From the NCBI GenBank assembly GCA_964291285.2, contig OZ219787.1:512001-576000 (forward strand): a DNA stretch of 64,000 nt. The letters run 5' to 3'. This DNA comes from Alphaproteobacteria bacterium (GTDB lineage: Bacteria > Pseudomonadota > Alphaproteobacteria > Bin95). The position numbers and the translations under genes were made by a program. Below, piece by piece: positions 4,506 to 11,840 of the stretch. The stretch's first letter is position 1. Every line of letters starts with the position of its first letter. Under the pieces are notes generated by a model. It was not told the origin of the DNA. It saw only the letters and a list, made by a program, of their open reading frames with translations, and searched no databases.

Positions 4506-6526
4506 TTATCCTCTGCGTTTCTGCTTTCTTTCCCCCCGCATTCCCGCTTCCAGCGGCGTGTGCATCTTTTCGTATAGAGCGAAGAGGTGCTCCACGCGCT
4601 CGCGTTCGGAGGCGAAGGGGGCCTTGCGGTACAGGCGGTCCACGGCGCGGTCGAGGCGGGTGTGGGCGCGGCGGAGGTTAGGGGGCATGAGGTCGGGATC
4701 GTAGAGGTCTGCGAGGGTTGCGTCCGGGTGGGCGGCGCGGGCGTCGAGGACTGCTTGGGCCAGCGGCTCCAGCTTCGACAGGTCCGCCTTGCCGGAGGCG
4801 AAGCCGGGCGGGGTCGGGAAGGTGTTGTAAACAAGGCCGATAGTATATCGGTAATCGCTCTTCAAACGTCCACCTATATGACGGACCCAAGCCATGTGCA
4901 TGGCCGAGGTAAGCAAACCGAATTGCCCAAGCGAGGTGTTTTCTTGAACACGAACGAGATTGCTGGGAATCGTCGGCGGCTTCAACCAGCCTATCGGCAC
5001 ATATTCGCGGCGTTCCGAGCTGGCTTCGGGGACAACAAGAAACGGGGTTTCGGGAATCGTCGTGAACGCGAATTCTGTCGGGAACGAGGCAAGGTCGCGA
5101 GTAGCTGGACGTTCGCTCTTCAATCGATAAGCTCGAACAGCGGCAATATGTTCCCGAACGCGGGGCAGACGAGCCAGCCGATCCGGCTTCACGTCGCGTA
5201 ACGAAAGAATCCAGCGATCACCGCCTTGGAGATATTCTCTTGCGCCGACAAAAGGCCGAAGGAAAATTCCGGCTTCCGGCTCCACAGCCAGAAGACTTTC
5301 ACGCTCTGCGGCATCGAATATTAGATTTCCGCCATCAATTGGCTGAGAGCCATAACGCAGAGGCGTGAACCCGTTTATCGGCCGACTCTCCTTCCGCACC
5401 GTAAGCTGCGGGTCGCCGAGGCCGCCGGCGTCGAACAGGTAGGGCGACAGCGCCCCGTGCCCACTTTCCTCCGGTTCGCCGTTCAGGTCGGGATAGGCGA
5501 ACAGGCGCTTTTCGGCCGGCGCGTCCTCCCGCCGGTCGAGGCCGAGGATGACGACATGCACATGCGCCTTGCCGCGCGCGTCCGAGCCCCAGGCGAAGGT
5601 GCGGTGGGCGAAGGCGATTTCCAGCTTGCAGCGGTCGAACAGGAGCGGCCATAGCTGGGCCACCTGCTCGCCCTGCGTGATCGAATTGGTGGCGACGAAG
5701 CCGATCCGCGCCCGGCCCGCGCGGGCATAATCCCCCGCCTTGAGGAACCATGCGGCGACATAATCCAGTGTGCCGCCGGACTTGCCCAAAGCCGCGATAC
5801 GGCGCACCTGCGCGCGCTGCTCCGGCGTCTGGAACTTCGCGCCGCCGAAGGGCGGATTGCCGAGCACGAACGAGCATTCGCCGGGCGGCAGCAACGCAGC
5901 CCAGTCCGTTTCCAACGCGTCGCCGTGGACGATATGCGGCGACTTCTCAAGCGGGATGCGAACGAAGGTCTGGCCGAATTCGAGACTCAGCCGGTTGTTC
6001 ATGATGTGGTCCATCATCCACAACGCGGTCTCCGCTATCCGGGCCGGGAACTCGCCAAGCTCGATGCCGTGGAACCGGTCCACATTCACCAGCGAAAGCG
6101 TGTCCGCCAGAACGTCGAACTGGCCGGTGGAATAGACCTCCTTCAGCACCTCGGTTTCGAGCTCGCGCAACTCCCGGTAGGCGATAATCAGGAAGTTGCC
6201 GCAGCCGCAGGCCGGGTCGAAAAAGCGCAGCTTTCCGAGCCGCTCCTGGAAGCGCAGCAGGCTCGGCCGACGCTGGCTGTCGCGCCGCGCCTTCAGGCGC
6301 TCGAACTCGGCCCGCAGCCCGTCCATGAACAACGGCTCGATCACCTTGAGGATGTTCTTCTCGGTGGTGTAATGCGCGCCCTGCACCCGGCGCTCCGCCG
6401 GGTCCATCACCGACTGGAAGAGCGCGCCGAAAATCGCCGGCGAGATGTTGGACCAGTCGAAGCGGCAGGCGTCCAGCAGGGCCTGGCGCATCGGCGCGTC
6501 GAAAGAGGGAATCCGGAGCGGCCCGT
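4506..6526 (-). pseudogene. MmeI-like type IIL restriction-modification enzyme, C-terminal part (m6A MTase, TRD, helical bundle), interrupted by an IS
   Basis: FDWSNISPAIFGALFQ, GAHYT, DPACGCGNF (motif I), GNPPF (motif IV), TNSITQGEQV, GGRLKSDYRY, ATLADLYDP; frame stays open up to the insertion site. Confidence 0.93.
6522..6526. repeat. Left copy of 5-bp target site duplication CCCGT (right copy 10576-10580)
   Basis: CCCGT abuts both element ends; removing the element plus one copy restores the RM reading frame. Confidence 0.93.
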
Positions 6527-6766
6527 TGTAGGTGACGGTCGTAAAAGGCGCTTATTTGCTGGCGTTGCGCGTTTTTGCGGGGCGTGATGATCGCAGTGAT
6601 TGTGGTGCGGCGGTGTTTGTGACGGGGGCCTGGGACGGAAGGAGGGCGTAGCCCGACTGGAGTCGCCGGCCCCCGTCGCGTTGATATTTTCGCCTGCCGA
6701 GGGGAGGGTGTCCTGGCGCTGTCGGCGGGGGTCGCCGGGCTGCGCGAGGGGGTAGACTGGGGCTGC

Positions 6767-6895
6767 TGAGAACGATGCGGCGCCGGCCCCGTTTGCTAGG
6801 TGGCAACGACCGGCGCCGCACCCCCCGAGCCATGCAAGGCACGGCCCGTATGCGCAGTATCGTAGGCGTTCGGGCGTGGGTCCACCCCGTTCTCA
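6767..6895 (+). ncRNA. Putative structured leader RNA or ncRNA of the IS21-like element
   Basis: Closing stem TGAGAACG (6767-6774)/CGTTCTCA (6888-6895); 11-bp stem 6776-6786/6810-6820; stem 6840-6848/6871-6878; -10-like TAGACT at 6753-6758 just upstream. Confidence 0.5.
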
Positions 6896-6907
6896 TCGGT
6901 CTTTGCG

Positions 6908-7342
6908 ATGAGGAACGCCGCCCGCCTGTTCACCTGCGCTTCGTGCCATCGCCAGGTTGTGCTGTGCCGGCGGTGCGACCACGGCAACATCTACTGCTCG
7001 CGTCCGTGCAGCGGCCGGGCGCGGCGGCGCTCGCTGCGCCTTGCCGGGCGTCGCTACCAGAACAGCCGGCGGGGCCGTCACAAGCATGCCGAACGCCAGC
7101 GGCGCTACCGCGAGCGCCGTCGCGTCCGTGCGCCTGAGGAGGGGCGCCGTGCGCAGAAAGTGACGCATCACCCTTTGACCCGTTCACCGCGCCGTCCTGT
7201 TGTGGCGGGCATGCCGGCGGGGCGCTCGGGAAGGAGGCCCTTCGGACCCGACCGTCCCGCCGGAGTGTTCCGCTGCGATCACTGCGGGCGGTTCTGCGCC
7301 CGGGCGGTCTATCCGGGCCTGCGCCCGGCGCGAAGGGAGTGA
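6908..7342 (+). CDS. Small Arg-rich Cys-cluster (putative Zn-binding) protein, IS accessory gene
   Basis: CASC-x6-CRRC-x6-CSRPC, Arg-rich middle helix, C-terminal CDHCGRFC; stop lies 1 bp before the istA ATG. Confidence 0.75.
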   Translation: MRNAARLFTCASCHRQVVLCRRCDHGNIYCSRPCSGRARRRSLRLAGRRYQNSRRGRHKHAERQRRYRERRRVRAPEEGRRAQKVTHHPLTRSPRRPVVAGMPAGRSGRRPFGPDRPAGVFRCDHCGRFCARAVYPGLRPARRE

Positions 7343-7343
7343 G

Positions 7344-8849
7344 ATGGCGATCGACCAGCAGACCCGGGCCGAGATCCTGCGGCTGTATTTTGCCGAGAAG
7401 TGGCGGATCGGCACGATCGCGCGCCAGCTCGGCGTCCACCACGGCACGGTCGAGCGCGCGGTGGCGGCCGCCGGGGCGCCCACGCCTGAGAAGCGGCGCA
7501 GATCTTCGATGATCGATCCGTTCCTGCCCTTCGTCCGCCAGACCCTGGCGGTCTGGCCGAAGTTGCCCTCCAGCCGGCTCTACCGGATGGCGGTCGAGCG
7601 CGGTTACCGGGGGTGCGAGAGCCACTTCCGGCGCATGATCGCGCCCGAGCGTCCGCGGCCGGTGGCCGAGGCCTATCTGCGCCTCAAGGCCCTGCCCGGC
7701 GAGCAGGCCCAGGTCGACTGGGCCCACTTCGGCAAGGTGAGGATCGGGCGTGCGGAGCGCCCGCTGATGGCCTTCGTGATGGTGCTCGGCCACTCGCGCC
7801 GCCTCTTCCTGCGCTTCTACCTCAACGCCGGGATGGACAACTTCCTGCGCGGCCATGTCGAGGCCTTCGAGGCTTGGCAGGGCGTGCCCCGCGAGCTCTG
7901 GTACGACAATCTGAAGAGCGTCGTGCTGGAGCGGCGCGGCGACGCCATCCGCTTCAATCCCCGGCTTCTCGACTTCGCAGGCGCCTACCGCTTCCTGCCG
8001 AAGCCGGTCGCGGTCGCCCGAGGCAACGAGAAGGGCCGCGTCGAGCGGGCCATACGCTATGTGCGCGACAGCTTCTTCGCCGCCCGCGCCTGGCGTGACC
8101 TCGACGATCTCAACGCCCAGGCCCGGGAGTGGTGCGAGGGCGTCGCCGCCGACCGCCCCTGGCCGGACGACCGCTCCCTCACCGTGAGCGAGGCCTTCGA
8201 GCGCGAGCGCGGCTCCCTGATGGCGCTGCCCGACGACCGTCCCCCCGTCGACGAGAGGGTCGAGGTCAGGATCGCCAAGACCCCCTATGCCAGGTTCGAC
8301 CTCAATGACTACAGCGTCCCGCATACCCATGTCCGGCGCACCCTCACCGTGGCCGCGACGCTGGAAGAGGTGCGCATCCTCGACGGCATGGAGGTCATCG
8401 CCCGCCATCCGCGCAGCTTCGACAAGGCGGCCCGCATCGAGAACCCCGAACACATTGAGGAGCTGGTCAGGCGCAAGCGTCACGCCCGCAGCCTGCGCGG
8501 GCAGAGCCGGCTGCTCCAGGCCGCGCCCAACAGCGAGCGCCTGATCGCCGAGGCCGCCCCCCGCGGCGCTTATATCGGCGCCACCGTCGCCGCCCTGCTG
8601 CGCCTGCTCGACCAATACGGCGCCGCCGAGCTCGAAGCCGCCATCGACGAGGCCCTCGAACGCGGCGTCCCCCATCCCAATGCCGTGCGCCTCAGCCTCA
8701 CACGGCGGCGCGAACTGCAGGACAGGCCGCCGCCGATCCCCATCGACCTGCCCAGGGACCCGCGCGTGCGCGACATCGCCGTGCGCGATCACGATCTCGG
8801 CGGATACGACGGGCTGGCCGGCTACCATGAAAAGGACAGCGAAGAATGA
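7344..8849 (+). CDS. istA: IS21 family DDE transposase IstA
   Basis: N-terminal HTH (IGTIARQLGVHHGTV), PGEQAQVDW, YDNLKS, KGRVER triad; RBS AAGGGAG before ATG 7344. Confidence 0.95.
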   Translation: MAIDQQTRAEILRLYFAEKWRIGTIARQLGVHHGTVERAVAAAGAPTPEKRRRSSMIDPFLPFVRQTLAVWPKLPSSRLYRMAVERGYRGCESHFRRMIAPERPRPVAEAYLRLKALPGEQAQVDWAHFGKVRIGRAERPLMAFVMVLGHSRRLFLRFYLNAGMDNFLRGHVEAFEAWQGVPRELWYDNLKSVVLERRGDAIRFNPRLLDFAGAYRFLPKPVAVARGNEKGRVERAIRYVRDSFFAARAWRDLDDLNAQAREWCEGVAADRPWPDDRSLTVSEAFERERGSLMALPDDRPPVDERVEVRIAKTPYARFDLNDYSVPHTHVRRTLTVAATLEEVRILDGMEVIARHPRSFDKAARIENPEHIEELVRRKRHARSLRGQSRLLQAAPNSERLIAEAAPRGAYIGATVAALLRLLDQYGAAELEAAIDEALERGVPHPNAVRLSLTRRRELQDRPPPIPIDLPRDPRVRDIAVRDHDLGGYDGLAGYHEKDSEE

Positions 8850-9640
8850 CCGACACCCTCATGAACCGCGCCCGCGCGCTGGGCCTGCACGGCCTCCTCG
8901 CCCATTGGGGCGAAGTCGCGGAGCGCGACTGGCTCGCCTCCCTGATCGCGTGGGAAGAAGATGAGAAGCGCGCCCGAAGCCTCAAACGCCGCCTCGCCGA
9001 CGCCCGCCTCGGACAGTTCAAGCCGCTCGCAGACTTCGACTGGGACTGGCCAAGGCGCTGCGACCGCATGGCCGTCGAGGACCTCATGACCCTCGACTTC
9101 CTCAAGGAGGCCGCAAACCTCGTACTGGTCGGACCCAACGGCGTCGGAAAGTCCACCATCGCCGCCAATATCGCCCACCGCGCCGTCCTCGAAGGCCACA
9201 TCGTGCGCTTCGCAACCGCCGCCAGCCTGCTCGGCGAACTCGCCGCCATCGACTCCGACACCCTGCTCCAGCGCAGGCTGCGCTTCTACGCCCGACAGCA
9301 CCTGCTGGTCATCGACGAAGTCGGATATCTCTCCTACTCCAACCGCCACGCCGACCTGCTGTTCAACATCGTCTCAAGCCGCAGCCAGCAGAACTCAACC
9401 ATAATCACCACGAACCGCCCCTTCGCCGAGTGGAGCGAGGCCTTCCCAAACGCCGCCTGCCTGGTCGCCCTCGTCGACCGGCTCGTCCACAACGCCGAGA
9501 TCGTCGCCATCGACGGCGACTCCTGGCGCCGCAAGGAAGCCGAGGAACGTCAGAAGCAGCGCAGCGCCGAACGCCGCCGCCGGCGCGGACCGAAAGCCGG
9601 GCAAAGCACTGGAAAGGCGAACCCGGTCCCGTCGCCATAG
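8846..9640 (+). CDS. istB: IS21 family AAA+ ATPase IstB
   Basis: Walker A GPNGVGKS, Walker B LLVIDE, TTNRPF, DRLVHNA; ATGA overlap with istA. Confidence 0.95.
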   Translation: MTDTLMNRARALGLHGLLAHWGEVAERDWLASLIAWEEDEKRARSLKRRLADARLGQFKPLADFDWDWPRRCDRMAVEDLMTLDFLKEAANLVLVGPNGVGKSTIAANIAHRAVLEGHIVRFATAASLLGELAAIDSDTLLQRRLRFYARQHLLVIDEVGYLSYSNRHADLLFNIVSSRSQQNSTIITTNRPFAEWSEAFPNAACLVALVDRLVHNAEIVAIDGDSWRRKEAEERQKQRSAERRRRRGPKAGQSTGKANPVPSP

Positions 9641-9642
9641 CC

Positions 9643-10515
9643 ATGCATCCCTCCCGCCCCCGCGAGCGGCGGGTGCGGGCCGAGAGCCTGCGGGGCTATC
9701 CCCTCGAACCCGTCGCCCGAGCCCTCGGCTACCGCAGCGATCCCGACAATGCCGTGCGCTGGAGACGGCCAGGATCGGTCCTCTCCATCAACCGCTTCAT
9801 GTTCTACGACCATCTGCGCGCAGAGGAGGGAGCCGGGGCTATCGAACTGGCGGTCCATGCGCTCGGATGCACCCCGCCGGACGCCATCGACTTCCTCGCC
9901 GAACTGTCCGACCTCTCAATGCCCCCAGGCGGCCGCCGGCAGGCGCCGGCCAAGGACCCCCGCTGGCCCAACCTCCGGCGATACCTCGTCGAGCGGCGCG
10001 GCCTCGCGGACGCGCTCGTCACCCTGTGCCGCGACCTCGGCCTGGTCCATGCCGACCCTCACGGCAACCCCGTGTTCGTCCGCCGAAACGCCGCCGGCGA
10101 GGCTACCGGCATCGAAACCGTCACCGCTGACCGCAAAACGACCGCGGGCGGCGGCTTCTGGATGTCCTGGGAGACCGAATGGCCACACGCCGTCATCCTG
10201 GCCGGCAACGCCCTCGACGCACTCTCCATCCTCTCCCTCCACCTCGGCCCGGTAAAACGCACCGAATGCGCCACCGTCTCCACCGGCGCCGTCGCCACCA
10301 AAGTCCCCAAATGGATCGAGGCATGGAACCCGCGCCTCATCTTCTGTGCATACGACGCCACCACAAACGGCGATCACGCCGCAAGGCGCCTCGCCCGCAA
10401 CGACACCAGAATCGTCCGGCTGCGACCCGCACTCGACAACCGGGACTGGAACGACATGCTCATCCGCGACCGAGCCGGCGAACCAATCGAAACCGATGAC
10501 CAACAGATCAACTGA
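9643..10515 (+). CDS. DUF3991/TOPRIM-like primase-related protein, IS cargo
   Basis: GAGAIELAVH, RRYLVERRGL, N.VF, DALS, AYDA, GDHAARRL, DWND motifs of plasmid primase-like TOPRIM proteins; starts 2 bp after istB stop and ends inside the element. Confidence 0.75.
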   Translation: MHPSRPRERRVRAESLRGYPLEPVARALGYRSDPDNAVRWRRPGSVLSINRFMFYDHLRAEEGAGAIELAVHALGCTPPDAIDFLAELSDLSMPPGGRRQAPAKDPRWPNLRRYLVERRGLADALVTLCRDLGLVHADPHGNPVFVRRNAAGEATGIETVTADRKTTAGGGFWMSWETEWPHAVILAGNALDALSILSLHLGPVKRTECATVSTGAVATKVPKWIEAWNPRLIFCAYDATTNGDHAARRLARNDTRIVRLRPALDNRDWNDMLIRDRAGEPIETDDQQIN

Positions 10516-10575
10516 AAAACCGCAACCGGCCGAAAAATGTCAGCGAATAGGCGCGCTCTGTAACCGTCGCTAACA

Positions 10576-11355
10576 CCCGTCGAACAGCGCGCCGTTGACA
10601 TGGGGAAAGCGCGCAAGGTCCTCGTCCAGCGCGGCGGAGCGCCCGTCTTCCGGCGTGTCGAGCACCTGGAACAGTTGCGAAAGCCAGGGGCCGAGATCGG
10701 CGCCGTCCTCGCCCGTGCGCGCCTCGATGAAGTCGAAGAAAATGTCGCGCGGCTCGAAAATGCCAGTGTCGTCCGCGAACAGGCAGAAGACGATGCGCAC
10801 GAGGAACCGCTCCAGGTCGCGGCCCCGGTAGCCGGTTTCCGCCAGCTTGTCGTGCAGCCGCCCGACCAGTTCGGCCGCCTCGATATTGGCCGGGTCCTGG
10901 TCGCGGAATGTCCGGCGCTGCACCCCCAGGATGAAGCCGAACTTCTCGACATGCGCGGGCAGGTCGGCAAGCGGAAAGGCCGCAACCTCCCGCTCGTCCA
11001 GATCGTGCAGCTCGAAGGTCTGGAAATCGCTCACCAGGATGTAGCGCGGACGCTCGCGTTCCGGCAGCGCGTCGAAATACTCCCCCGCCTGTTCGTATGC
11101 CGCTTTCAGGTCCCGCCCGGCGCTCTTCTGCTCGACGATCAGTACGCCCGGCCAGAACAGGTCGATGAAGCCGGAGCGATTGTCGAGCTTGGAGACGTGT
11201 TGCTCGTAGCGCGCAACGGTCCGCCGCCGCACTCCGAACACCCGGAAGAATGCGTTGTAGAAGCTCTGCGTCTCGCCCTTCTCGTAGGCCGCGTCCTTCC
11301 AGTCTTCGGCGAAGGCGGCGGCGCGGATGCGGACCTCGTTCCACGAAAGGCGCAT
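10576..11355 (-). pseudogene. MmeI-like type IIL restriction-modification enzyme, N-terminal part (PD-(D/E)xK nuclease and spacer)
   Basis: EKGETQSFYNAFF, FIDLFWPGVLIVEQKS nuclease motif, VSDFQTF, FCLFADDTGIF, FPHVNGALF; truncated by a stop inside the IS right end. Confidence 0.93.
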
Positions 11356-11840
11356 CAGCCCGCGCTATCCGGTTCGTTCGGGTGCCGCCGGTTCGGCATC
11401 GGCCCCGCGCGGTCGTTCGCCATGTCGTTCACCATCGGCGCTCCTTGTCCATCAATGGTAGCCGATCGGGTTCGCGTCCACAGCCTGCCGTCCCGGTGCT
11501 GTCCGGAGCAATGCCATGTTCTGATTTTTTGAAATAATTCTATGATAGATGCTTGCATTTGGAAAAATTGTGATATGATGGGTGTGAGGTAAGCGAAGTC
11601 CGCGCGGACCGCTTCCCGCCCGTGCCGGTCCGGCGCGGAACGACCCTGATTCAGCCGACAGGCGAGGTGTGCCCTGCACCTGCCTCGCGCGCGCAATCAG
11701 GCGCGCGAACCGCGCCGGCGCAATGGCGCGCCCGCCCGCGCAGGCACGGGCGGGCGCAGGATACGCGCGGATCAGGGTCCCGCCGCCGGCAGACCGGGGT
11801 CGGGGAGGACGGAACGAAACAGGAGCGAAAGGAAGGACCC

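Follow-up and report, generated by a model that had tools for sequence, protein, structure and literature searches.

Why does an insertion sequence carry a conserved, non-coding stretch directly ahead of its first gene, and what might that stretch do? The question is raised by an element of the IS21 family in an alphaproteobacterial genome (GenBank assembly GCA_964291285.2, contig OZ219787.1), which lies near the left end of the 64,000-nucleotide (nt) stretch of DNA that we analysed as a whole and refer to as the window; all coordinates are those of the window. An initial annotation, made from the letters alone, had proposed that the ~130 nt ahead of the Arg-rich first open reading frame (ORF1) form a multi-stem RNA, either a cis-regulatory leader or a scaffold or guide RNA for transposition. 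We found that the leader is a structured RNA of a new family that is not in Rfam 15. Comparison of its sequences suggests that it is likely a cis-acting, two-state translational switch for ORF1 and, by coupling, for the transposase IstA. The reading as a cis-regulatory leader is thus supported: a conserved promoter-like motif precedes the stretch and the first ORF follows it, its helices covary, and it contains a platform that can sequester the start codon.

Conservation and covariation of the leader

Related genomes from the genus retain 6748-6910 at 83-92% DNA identity, even where the 220 nt from the left end of the element to 6748 have been replaced by other sequence. More distant loci were drawn from genome contigs, where the best 80 of 352 confirmed loci were taken (mostly alphaproteobacterial metagenome-assembled genomes, with some Dehalococcoidia and one Gemmatimonadota), and from metagenome contigs, where the best 80 of 483 confirmed loci were taken and form a distant ORF1 group. 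The leader is recognisably homologous in both sets. A coding leader was considered and rejected: the ORF1 frame is closed by a TAG at 6863-6865, the indels among relatives are not multiples of three (lengths of 1 nt and 13 nt occur), and the gene calls that give some homologues a longer N terminus use different frames.

The comparative evidence for a fold comes first from 49 distant metagenomic leaders, whose ORF1 is ~45% identical to that of the window, aligned with MAFFT (alignment A3). Since RNAalifold on the raw alignment gave only two helices, P1 and P3, together with one spurious short helix, P2 and P4 were defined by hand and tested with pair counts. The resulting fold is a four-way junction, P1-P4 (Table 1). 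In this four-helix structure 81.6% of the alignment cells are paired, versus 29.7-42.5% with slid partners, and 23 of 40 pairs show double changes. Four of the five measures were reached by none of 500 shuffles; for the remaining one (further pair types), 177 shuffles did as well.

A covariance model, R1, was built from A3 only. Because the window and its close relatives are absent from the training set, their matches to R1 constitute an independent test. The model matches window positions 6751-6922 on the plus strand over its full length (model positions 1-170) with 57.2 bits (E 2.3e-17), and the next-best plus-strand match within the 64-kb window scores 9.5 bits. After duplicated loci had been taken out, R1 matched the leader in 91 of 95 sources, among them 42 of the 46 that had not been used for training, where it lies upstream of ORF1. 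The misses were L018 and L087, in which the leader is partly replaced or deleted, L103, which has a different upstream sequence, and L176. An alignment fitted to R1 (A5) has 83 distinct rows, supplied by 84 of the 95 sources; it omits the four without a match, six that are partial, truncated or short (L111, L112, L114, L164, L177, and L187), and L016, which duplicates L090. Covariation among homologues was one of the checks proposed in the initial annotation. In A5 83.3% of cells are paired and 34 of 40 pairs are doubly changed, counts that lean towards the structure because A5 is fitted to the model.

In its own genome R1 matches 24 places, all of them at copies or fragments of the element, and 19 of the 24 have identical scores. 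A sample of 150 genomes drawn evenly from the phylum gave no match, which describes the genomes searched and is not a statement of absence. At the distant loci the leader is followed by ORF1 and then by istA and istB, with the expected IstA or IstB domains in 9 of 9 ORFs tested. A search by istA/istB DNA similarity alone led to two plasmids of cultured bacteria, NC_014911.1 (Alicycliphilus denitrificans BC) and NC_006823.1 (Aromatoleum aromaticum EbN1); each has a 50.3-bit R1 match followed by a 143-amino acid (aa) relative of ORF1. On NC_014911.1 this relative (L210:1855-2286) overlaps the start of istA, and there is a matching place on NC_006823.1 (L211); the protein is missing from the gene table of PLSDB, a table known to be incomplete. 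Among viral contigs there was one true leader with ORF1 (L207), while L208 and L209 had 19-mer matches in unrelated sequence without an ORF1 relative and were taken as chance.

Searches with Rfam 15 gave nothing at E<=1 in window positions 6000-11500. Across seven diverse loci no Rfam family was found at the leader, the only hit being snR39 (E 0.046) elsewhere in L188. A hammerhead-like core seen by eye (CUGAGAA) was also rejected: it is a misfit, lacks a counterpart in distant relatives, and is negative in Rfam. In the literature searched, as far as it was accessible, neither a leader RNA associated with IS21 nor ORF1 was found described.

The helices that had been proposed in the initial annotation are present in the sequence. 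The 8-base pair (bp) closing stem, in which TGAGAACG (6767-6774) exactly complements CGTTCTCA (6888-6895), is the inner part of P1, and the perfect 11-bp hairpin (6776-6786 with 6810-6820) is exact and belongs to P2. The TAGACT hexamer, the letters of the segment 6849-6870, and the spacing of the ATG at 6908, 12 nt after 6895 with no GGAG-type ribosome-binding site between, were likewise as described. A second stem, 6840-6848 with 6871-6878, pairs only with a 1-nt bulge, and the comparative data split it differently: 6839-6844 pairs with 6830-6835 as P3, and only 6845-6848 with 6871-6874 belongs to P4, as its outer part. The initial annotation had overlooked that 6888-6898 can also pair with 6906-6917, an alternative hairpin in which the start codon is buried and which would give the leader its second state.

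A candidate two-state switch at the start codon

The 3' strand of P1 is common to two mutually exclusive helices, P1 itself and the hairpin that sequesters the start codon, an arrangement like that of riboswitch expression platforms. The hairpin has a local stability of -13.5 kcal/mol in the window, and in the distant group 92.4% of its cells are paired and 5 of its 11 pairs are doubly changed. The shared strand covaries with both of its partners: column 159 does so with column 21 in P1 and with column 179 in the sequestor. The 5' arm of P1 mimics the start region (GCCGUUG compared with GCCGAUG), 6 of 7 positions being identical in 35 of 49 rows. When each state was forced on 6761-6935, the P1 state had -77.2 and the sequestor state -77.7 kcal/mol, a separation of 0.5 kcal/mol.

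We propose that 6761-6917 on the plus strand would be the 5' leader of the operon mRNA of the element and act as a two-state translational switch. In the first state the four-way junction with P1 would be formed and the AUG of ORF1 (6908) would be free; in the second, the 3' strand of P1 (6888-6898) would pair with 6906-6917 and the AUG would be buried. The buried state would lower translation of ORF1 and, by coupling, that of istA. Since the stop codon of ORF1 (7340-7342) ends 1 nt before the ATG of istA (7344), coupling to transposase synthesis is plausible, and the switch probably sets the amount of transposase made. That the fold regulates translation, and what flips it, we infer from these features; the trigger may be an antisense RNA, the ORF1 protein, or a ligand.

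The start of the transcript can be predicted from the same alignment. A motif of the form TGACN-N16-18-TANNNN ends 3-8 nt (mode 6) before the first base of P1 in 70 of 82 unique leaders, and with this promoter-like motif just before P1 the transcript would begin with the P1 5' arm. In the sub-lineage of the window (with L032 and L035) the -35 TGACA was lost through an 11-nt difference at 6730-6752; this sub-lineage is nevertheless the one with more than 20 copies.

Several results pull in the other direction. The window is one of 12 leaders without the conserved -35 TGACA, and a sigma-70 consensus scan gave no promoter on either strand. In the window group (26 leaders) 89.2% of cells are paired, but covariation is weak, with only 6 of 42 pairs doubly changed, a count reached by 68 of 500 shuffles; the AUG hairpin, also 89.2% paired in this group, shows no covariation there. 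Single-sequence folding is modest as well. The segment 6753-6907 does fold better than shuffled sequence, though modestly (plus strand, -74.7 kcal/mol, z -2.21, equalled by 4 of 200 shuffles); the minus strand of the same segment is its equal (z -2.33), and the fold of 6761-6925 has a z of only -1.24. Since the sequence of the window group is nearly fixed (79% mean column identity), the evidence of covariation comes from the distant group and from comparison between groups, and since single-sequence folding could not settle the matter, we regard the comparative evidence as decisive.

The same near-fixity of sequence could suggest that the region is conserved at the level of DNA, either as sites for IstA or a host factor or as a hairpin or cruciform of the single-stranded minus strand. 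P2 is a near-perfect palindrome, and a minus-strand hairpin that tolerates G.T pairs would also fit the excess of A.C mismatches described in the next section. However, double-stranded sites have no need of compensatory changes in four helices, nor of a long-range helix whose strands lie 120 nt apart, and no copy of the motifs was found at the right end of the element. To our knowledge, IS21-type DDE transposition does not use single-stranded hairpins. We consider conservation at the DNA level very improbable as the explanation and retain the RNA switch as the preferred one.

Strand asymmetry and a putative antisense RNA

The mismatches within the helices differ in kind. Among non-Watson-Crick cells, A.C or C.A outnumber G.U or U.G by 111 to 1 in P2 and by 39 to 9 in P3, while the counts are 21 versus 37 in P1 and 59 versus 89 in P4. 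Parsimony events on a FastTree phylogeny of the 83 leaders, a rough count because the tree was built from the same alignment, give 54 A.C versus 1 G.U in P2, 23 versus 8 in P3, 14 versus 24 in P1, and 39 versus 55 in P4. Since every plus-strand A.C corresponds to a G.U in the complementary strand, the mismatches of P2 and P3 carry the wobble signature of a minus-strand RNA. Predicted stabilities divide along similar lines. In 81 of 83 leaders the minus strand gives the more stable P2 region, by 7.1 kcal/mol; the plus strand gives the more stable P4 in 24 of 26 window-group leaders and the more stable sequestor in 57 of 83. In the window itself, 6761-6852 folds at -54.1 kcal/mol on the minus strand (z -3.93, 0 of 200 shuffles as good), compared with -41.0 kcal/mol on the plus strand (z -1.37, 27 of 200 shuffles as good).

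A minus-strand promoter can be proposed at the place where the strand preference changes (Table 1). Its GATACT hexamer is found in 57 of 79 leaders, and its -35 hexamer is TGGATT in 36 leaders and TGGACC in 15. A transcript starting ~7 nt past GATACT would contain exactly P3 and P2, without P4, which fits the change point. The trigger that we favour is such an antisense RNA, with a template reaching from the P4 loop to P1. Once paired with the leader's 5' half, it would keep P1 from forming and favour the state in which the AUG is buried, and the outcome would be copy-number-dependent inhibition, as RNA-OUT exerts on IS10. A stable stem-loop does appear to be selected on the antisense strand, as in IS10-type control, with composition explaining part of it.

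This extension of the switch has to be set against a number of contrary findings. With 2280 C and 1729 G, the plus strand here is rich in C, so that minus-strand stability is partly compositional, and shuffled minus strands fold better too (means of -28.7 and -23.7 for minus and plus, respectively); z is nonetheless better for the minus strand in 36 of 42 sequences (-3.55 versus -2.80; every second of the 83 rows). Only 3-4 of the 6 positions of the proposed antisense -35 agree with the consensus, the putative promoter falls below the threshold of the scan, and a search of the minus strand beyond P2 gave no U-tract terminator. The overlap is predicted to end near 6849, 58 nt upstream of the AUG at 6908, and to leave the AUG uncovered. 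On these comparisons an antisense RNA is a credible but tentative candidate for the trigger, and we would put it somewhat below an even chance.

The asymmetry could be carried further by supposing that the minus-strand transcript, as an antisense or outward-directed small RNA, is the sole functional RNA and that the plus-strand fold is largely its mirror image. The wobble signature of P2 and P3, the higher minus-strand stability, and the promoter-like hexamers of that strand would all follow. Against this, P1, P4, and the AUG hairpin lean to the plus strand, G.U exceeds A.C in P1 and P4, and both P4 and the sequestor are plus-stable in the majorities given above; moreover, the AUG hairpin covaries with codon positions, which is meaningful only in an mRNA, and the leader is necessarily part of the operon mRNA anyway. 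A function confined to the minus strand therefore seems unlikely to us, and the plus-strand switch, with or without an antisense partner, remains our preferred reading.

Possible sensors of the junction

Two stretches of the junction are conserved in sequence without being paired. The loop region of P4 has a near-invariant AGTAT (6856-6860), of which A, T, A, and T are invariant in A3, and the junction has a second motif between P4 and the 3' strand of P1 (Table 1). The distance from the P4 loop to the junction motif is 19 nt in 71 of the 79 leaders in which both motifs were found.

Conserved unpaired nucleotides of this kind would be expected of a protein-binding site, and the ORF1 protein, with its zinc ribbon and long Arg-rich helices, could bind the junction, shift the balance between P1 and the sequestor, and so regulate its own synthesis and that of IstA, in the manner of ribosomal-protein leaders. 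The leader lies directly upstream of ORF1 in 91 of 95 sources and on the two plasmids found independently of ORF1, although the co-occurrence is partly built in because the loci were mostly retrieved through ORF1. The protein has invariant Cys columns and an Arg-rich helical segment. Among 672 candidates, 150 were relatives at E<=0.001; relatives number at least 352 on genome contigs and at least 483 on metagenome contigs. Its predicted model (predicted local distance difference test score of 71.5) has N-terminal beta strands with paired Cys, long basic helices at residues 32-52 and 54-81, and a small Cys-bearing beta unit at the C-terminal end. No Pfam or NCBIfam family matched ORF1, and in the Atlas it fell into unnamed clusters only. 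A Foldseek search of the Protein Data Bank gave YacG, a zinc finger, as its best match (E 1.6, not significant), which is to say no RNA-binding relative, and binding of ORF1 would leave the A.C excess of P2 and P3 unexplained. An RNA-binding, autoregulatory role for the modelled protein is possible, but on balance doubtful.

A multi-helix junction with conserved unpaired nucleotides, coupled to a P1-versus-sequestor expression platform, could also be the aptamer of a riboswitch that ties transposase synthesis to the state of the cell through a small molecule or ion. The downstream genes, however, serve transposition and not metabolism or transport, which makes a metabolic ligand less likely; the known riboswitch families gave no match, nothing suggests a ligand, and it is unusual for an aptamer to have a helix as long and as perfectly paired as P2. 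We consider a riboswitch improbable.

The pieces could conceivably be combined. If the junction were a sensor for the ORF1 protein or for a cellular ligand, and an antisense RNA were encoded in cis, then RNA, RNA, and protein would form a three-part circuit that sets the transposition frequency of this IS21 subfamily. This fuller scheme is rather unlikely in our estimation.

Guide-RNA targeting is unsupported

The second proposal of the initial annotation was that the RNA assists in targeting, as a scaffold or guide in transposition and, for example, in the choice of target in the manner of the IS110 bridge RNA. Its position, that of a structured RNA in the non-coding left end upstream of recombination genes, is all that recommends it. 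The evidence from the insertion sites goes the other way. The 22 sites share no motif, with at most 0.51 bit per position (14 reconstructed sites), and the match of target site to leader is 7.00 nt, compared with 6.85 nt in shuffled sites (14 reconstructed sites). Near-identical leaders thus stand beside unrelated targets, so that targeting by a guide RNA is unsupported. The variable loops are either short, as the 3-nt loop of P3, or dispensable, as the apex of P2, which is deleted in L106, and the 5-bp target duplications are those of ordinary DDE transposition. We regard a guide or scaffold function as extremely improbable.

Comparison with known control systems and significance

Control of transposase translation by RNA has precedents, and the proposed switch resembles several known systems. 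In IS10/Tn10, the antisense RNA-OUT controls translation of the transposase mRNA, RNA-IN. As in IS10, the control module here lies at the transposase-proximal end of the insertion sequence, sense and antisense promoters would face each other, the antisense RNA (here putative) is a stable stem-loop, and inhibition would be expected to depend on copy number. There are also differences: the antisense RNA is predicted, and its overlap (about 6765-6849) lies off the AUG, so that its effect would be indirect, with P1 prevented and the AUG then buried by an intramolecular hairpin. A 135-nt four-way junction serves as sense leader where that of IS10 is a short, unstructured 5' end, and there is no sequence relation. 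In IS200 a stem-loop of the 5' untranslated region occludes the ribosome-binding site. There, too, a cis-acting hairpin in the mRNA leader of an insertion sequence sequesters the start of translation, but in the present leader the sequestor competes with a long-range helix that closes a multi-helix domain, which would make the leader bistable, and the transposase family is DDE IstA/IstB. The repZ and repA leaders of IncI-alpha and IncB plasmids are controlled by the Inc antisense RNA. As proposed here, the antisense RNA acts on an upstream stem-loop and blocks a long-range RNA interaction that downstream translation needs; those systems, however, control plasmid replication through a pseudoknot activator, where P1 versus sequestor is at issue here, and there is no homology.

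The IS110 bridge RNA is likewise a structured RNA from the non-coding end, upstream of the recombinase gene (PMC11208158; bioRxiv 10.64898/2026.10.21.760802). In the present leader no programmable loops match target or donor, a DDE transposase works with an AAA+ helper, and the RNA overlaps the translation start of the next ORF.

IS21-family elements are widespread, carry resistance and catabolic genes, and are a structural model for AAA+-assisted transposition. In the literature searched, as far as it was accessible, we found no description of RNA-level control of IS21-family (IstA/IstB) elements. The new RNA family offers a testable two-state mechanism, along with an unusual signal of strand asymmetry that points to an antisense partner, and the plasmids of Aromatoleum aromaticum EbN1 and Alicycliphilus denitrificans BC provide carriers in culture. 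The analysis also brings to notice a conserved, unnamed first gene that encodes a zinc-ribbon, Arg-rich protein. Were the three-part circuit true, it would be a control layer across the whole IS21 subfamily, and none such was found described for IstA/IstB elements in the literature searched.

The element, its genes, and its genomic setting

The features discussed are listed in Table 1.

Table 1. Leader elements, proposed signals, and genes of the IS21-family element in the window.
Feature	Position	Strand	Remarks
IS21-family element	6527-10575	+	4049 bp; carries the leader; lies within an MmeI-type restriction-modification gene
Imperfect palindrome with T-rich tail	6621-6677	+	Between left end and promoter; terminator-like
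-10-like TAGACT of sense promoter	6753-6758	+	Kept in the window
P1, 5' strand (anti-sequestor)	6761-6774	+	Pair counts; mimics the start-codon region
P2, long hairpin	6776-6820	+	11 perfect bp plus apical stem; 10 of 13 pairs doubly changed (A5)
P3, hairpin	6830-6844	+	6 bp including one A.C; variable 3-nt loop; 5 of 6 pairs doubly changed (A5)
P4, hairpin	6845-6874	+	11 of 11 pairs doubly changed (A5)
Unpaired junction motif GGTCCAC	6879-6885	+	TCCAG in distant relatives
P1, 3' strand	6888-6901	+	Common to P1 and the AUG-sequestering hairpin
Alternative hairpin burying the AUG	6888-6917	+	6888-6898 with 6906-6917; G6913 bulged; loop 6899-6905
Putative antisense promoter	6856-6884	-	TGGACC (complement of 6879-6884), 17 nt, GATACT (complement of 6856-6861)
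Putative antisense RNA	6761-6849	-	Predicted; complements of P3 and P2
ORF1	6908-7342	+	144 aa, Cys- and Arg-rich; stop 1 nt before the istA ATG
istA, IS21-family transposase	7344-8849	+	NF033546, 244 bits (cut-off 160)
istB, helper AAA+ ATPase	8846-9640	+	NF038214, 208 bits (cut-off 200)
DUF3991/Toprim-like passenger ORF	9643-10515	+	PF13154, 28 bits; Toprim_2, 19.3 bits, below cut-off

Assignment to the IS21 family is based on the order of the genes, IstA and then IstB, and on the ends of the element, which start TGTAGGTGACGGT and TGTTAGCGACGGT and form terminal inverted repeats flanked by short target duplications. IS21 elements make target duplications of 4-8 bp. An exact 5-bp duplication flanks 14 of 22 copies, a count that depends on the element boundaries as set in this analysis. 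A BLAST search with 6300-10800 gave 18 uninterrupted and 4 interrupted full-length copies in the genome, at >=99.7% identity, plus fragments; the interrupted copies contain other insertions and are 4184-5961 bp long. A search with the two ends gave 24 left and 25 right ends. Solo right ends of 71 nt stand at C1:197580-197650 and C2:438669-438739 with identical flanks, which may reflect a region duplicated on two replicons.

The fourth ORF has a DUF3991 match and a sub-threshold Toprim_2 match, as plasmid primase-like proteins do. At L166, the only distant locus checked for it, there is no room for a Toprim-like ORF.

The gene cut by the element is of the MmeI type (type IIL). Its N-terminal domains lie at 10570-11355 and its methyltransferase, target recognition, and C-terminal domains at 4506-6491, both on the minus strand; since the element splits it in two, the defence gene has probably lost its function.

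The imperfect palindrome of 6621-6677 stands between the left end and the promoter. A fold of the surrounding 6612-6700 has -49.4 kcal/mol (z -3.88, equalled by 1 of 200 shuffles), and the palindrome may be a terminator against transcription that reads in from outside, or a small repeat element. A consensus scan for intrinsic terminators gave a single terminator-like site, at 6547-6566. The palindrome (53-60 nt) also stands alone, at ~8 places in the same genome with ~85% identity and at 11 places in G015, and a sister lineage has another palindrome at the position equivalent to 6621-6677.

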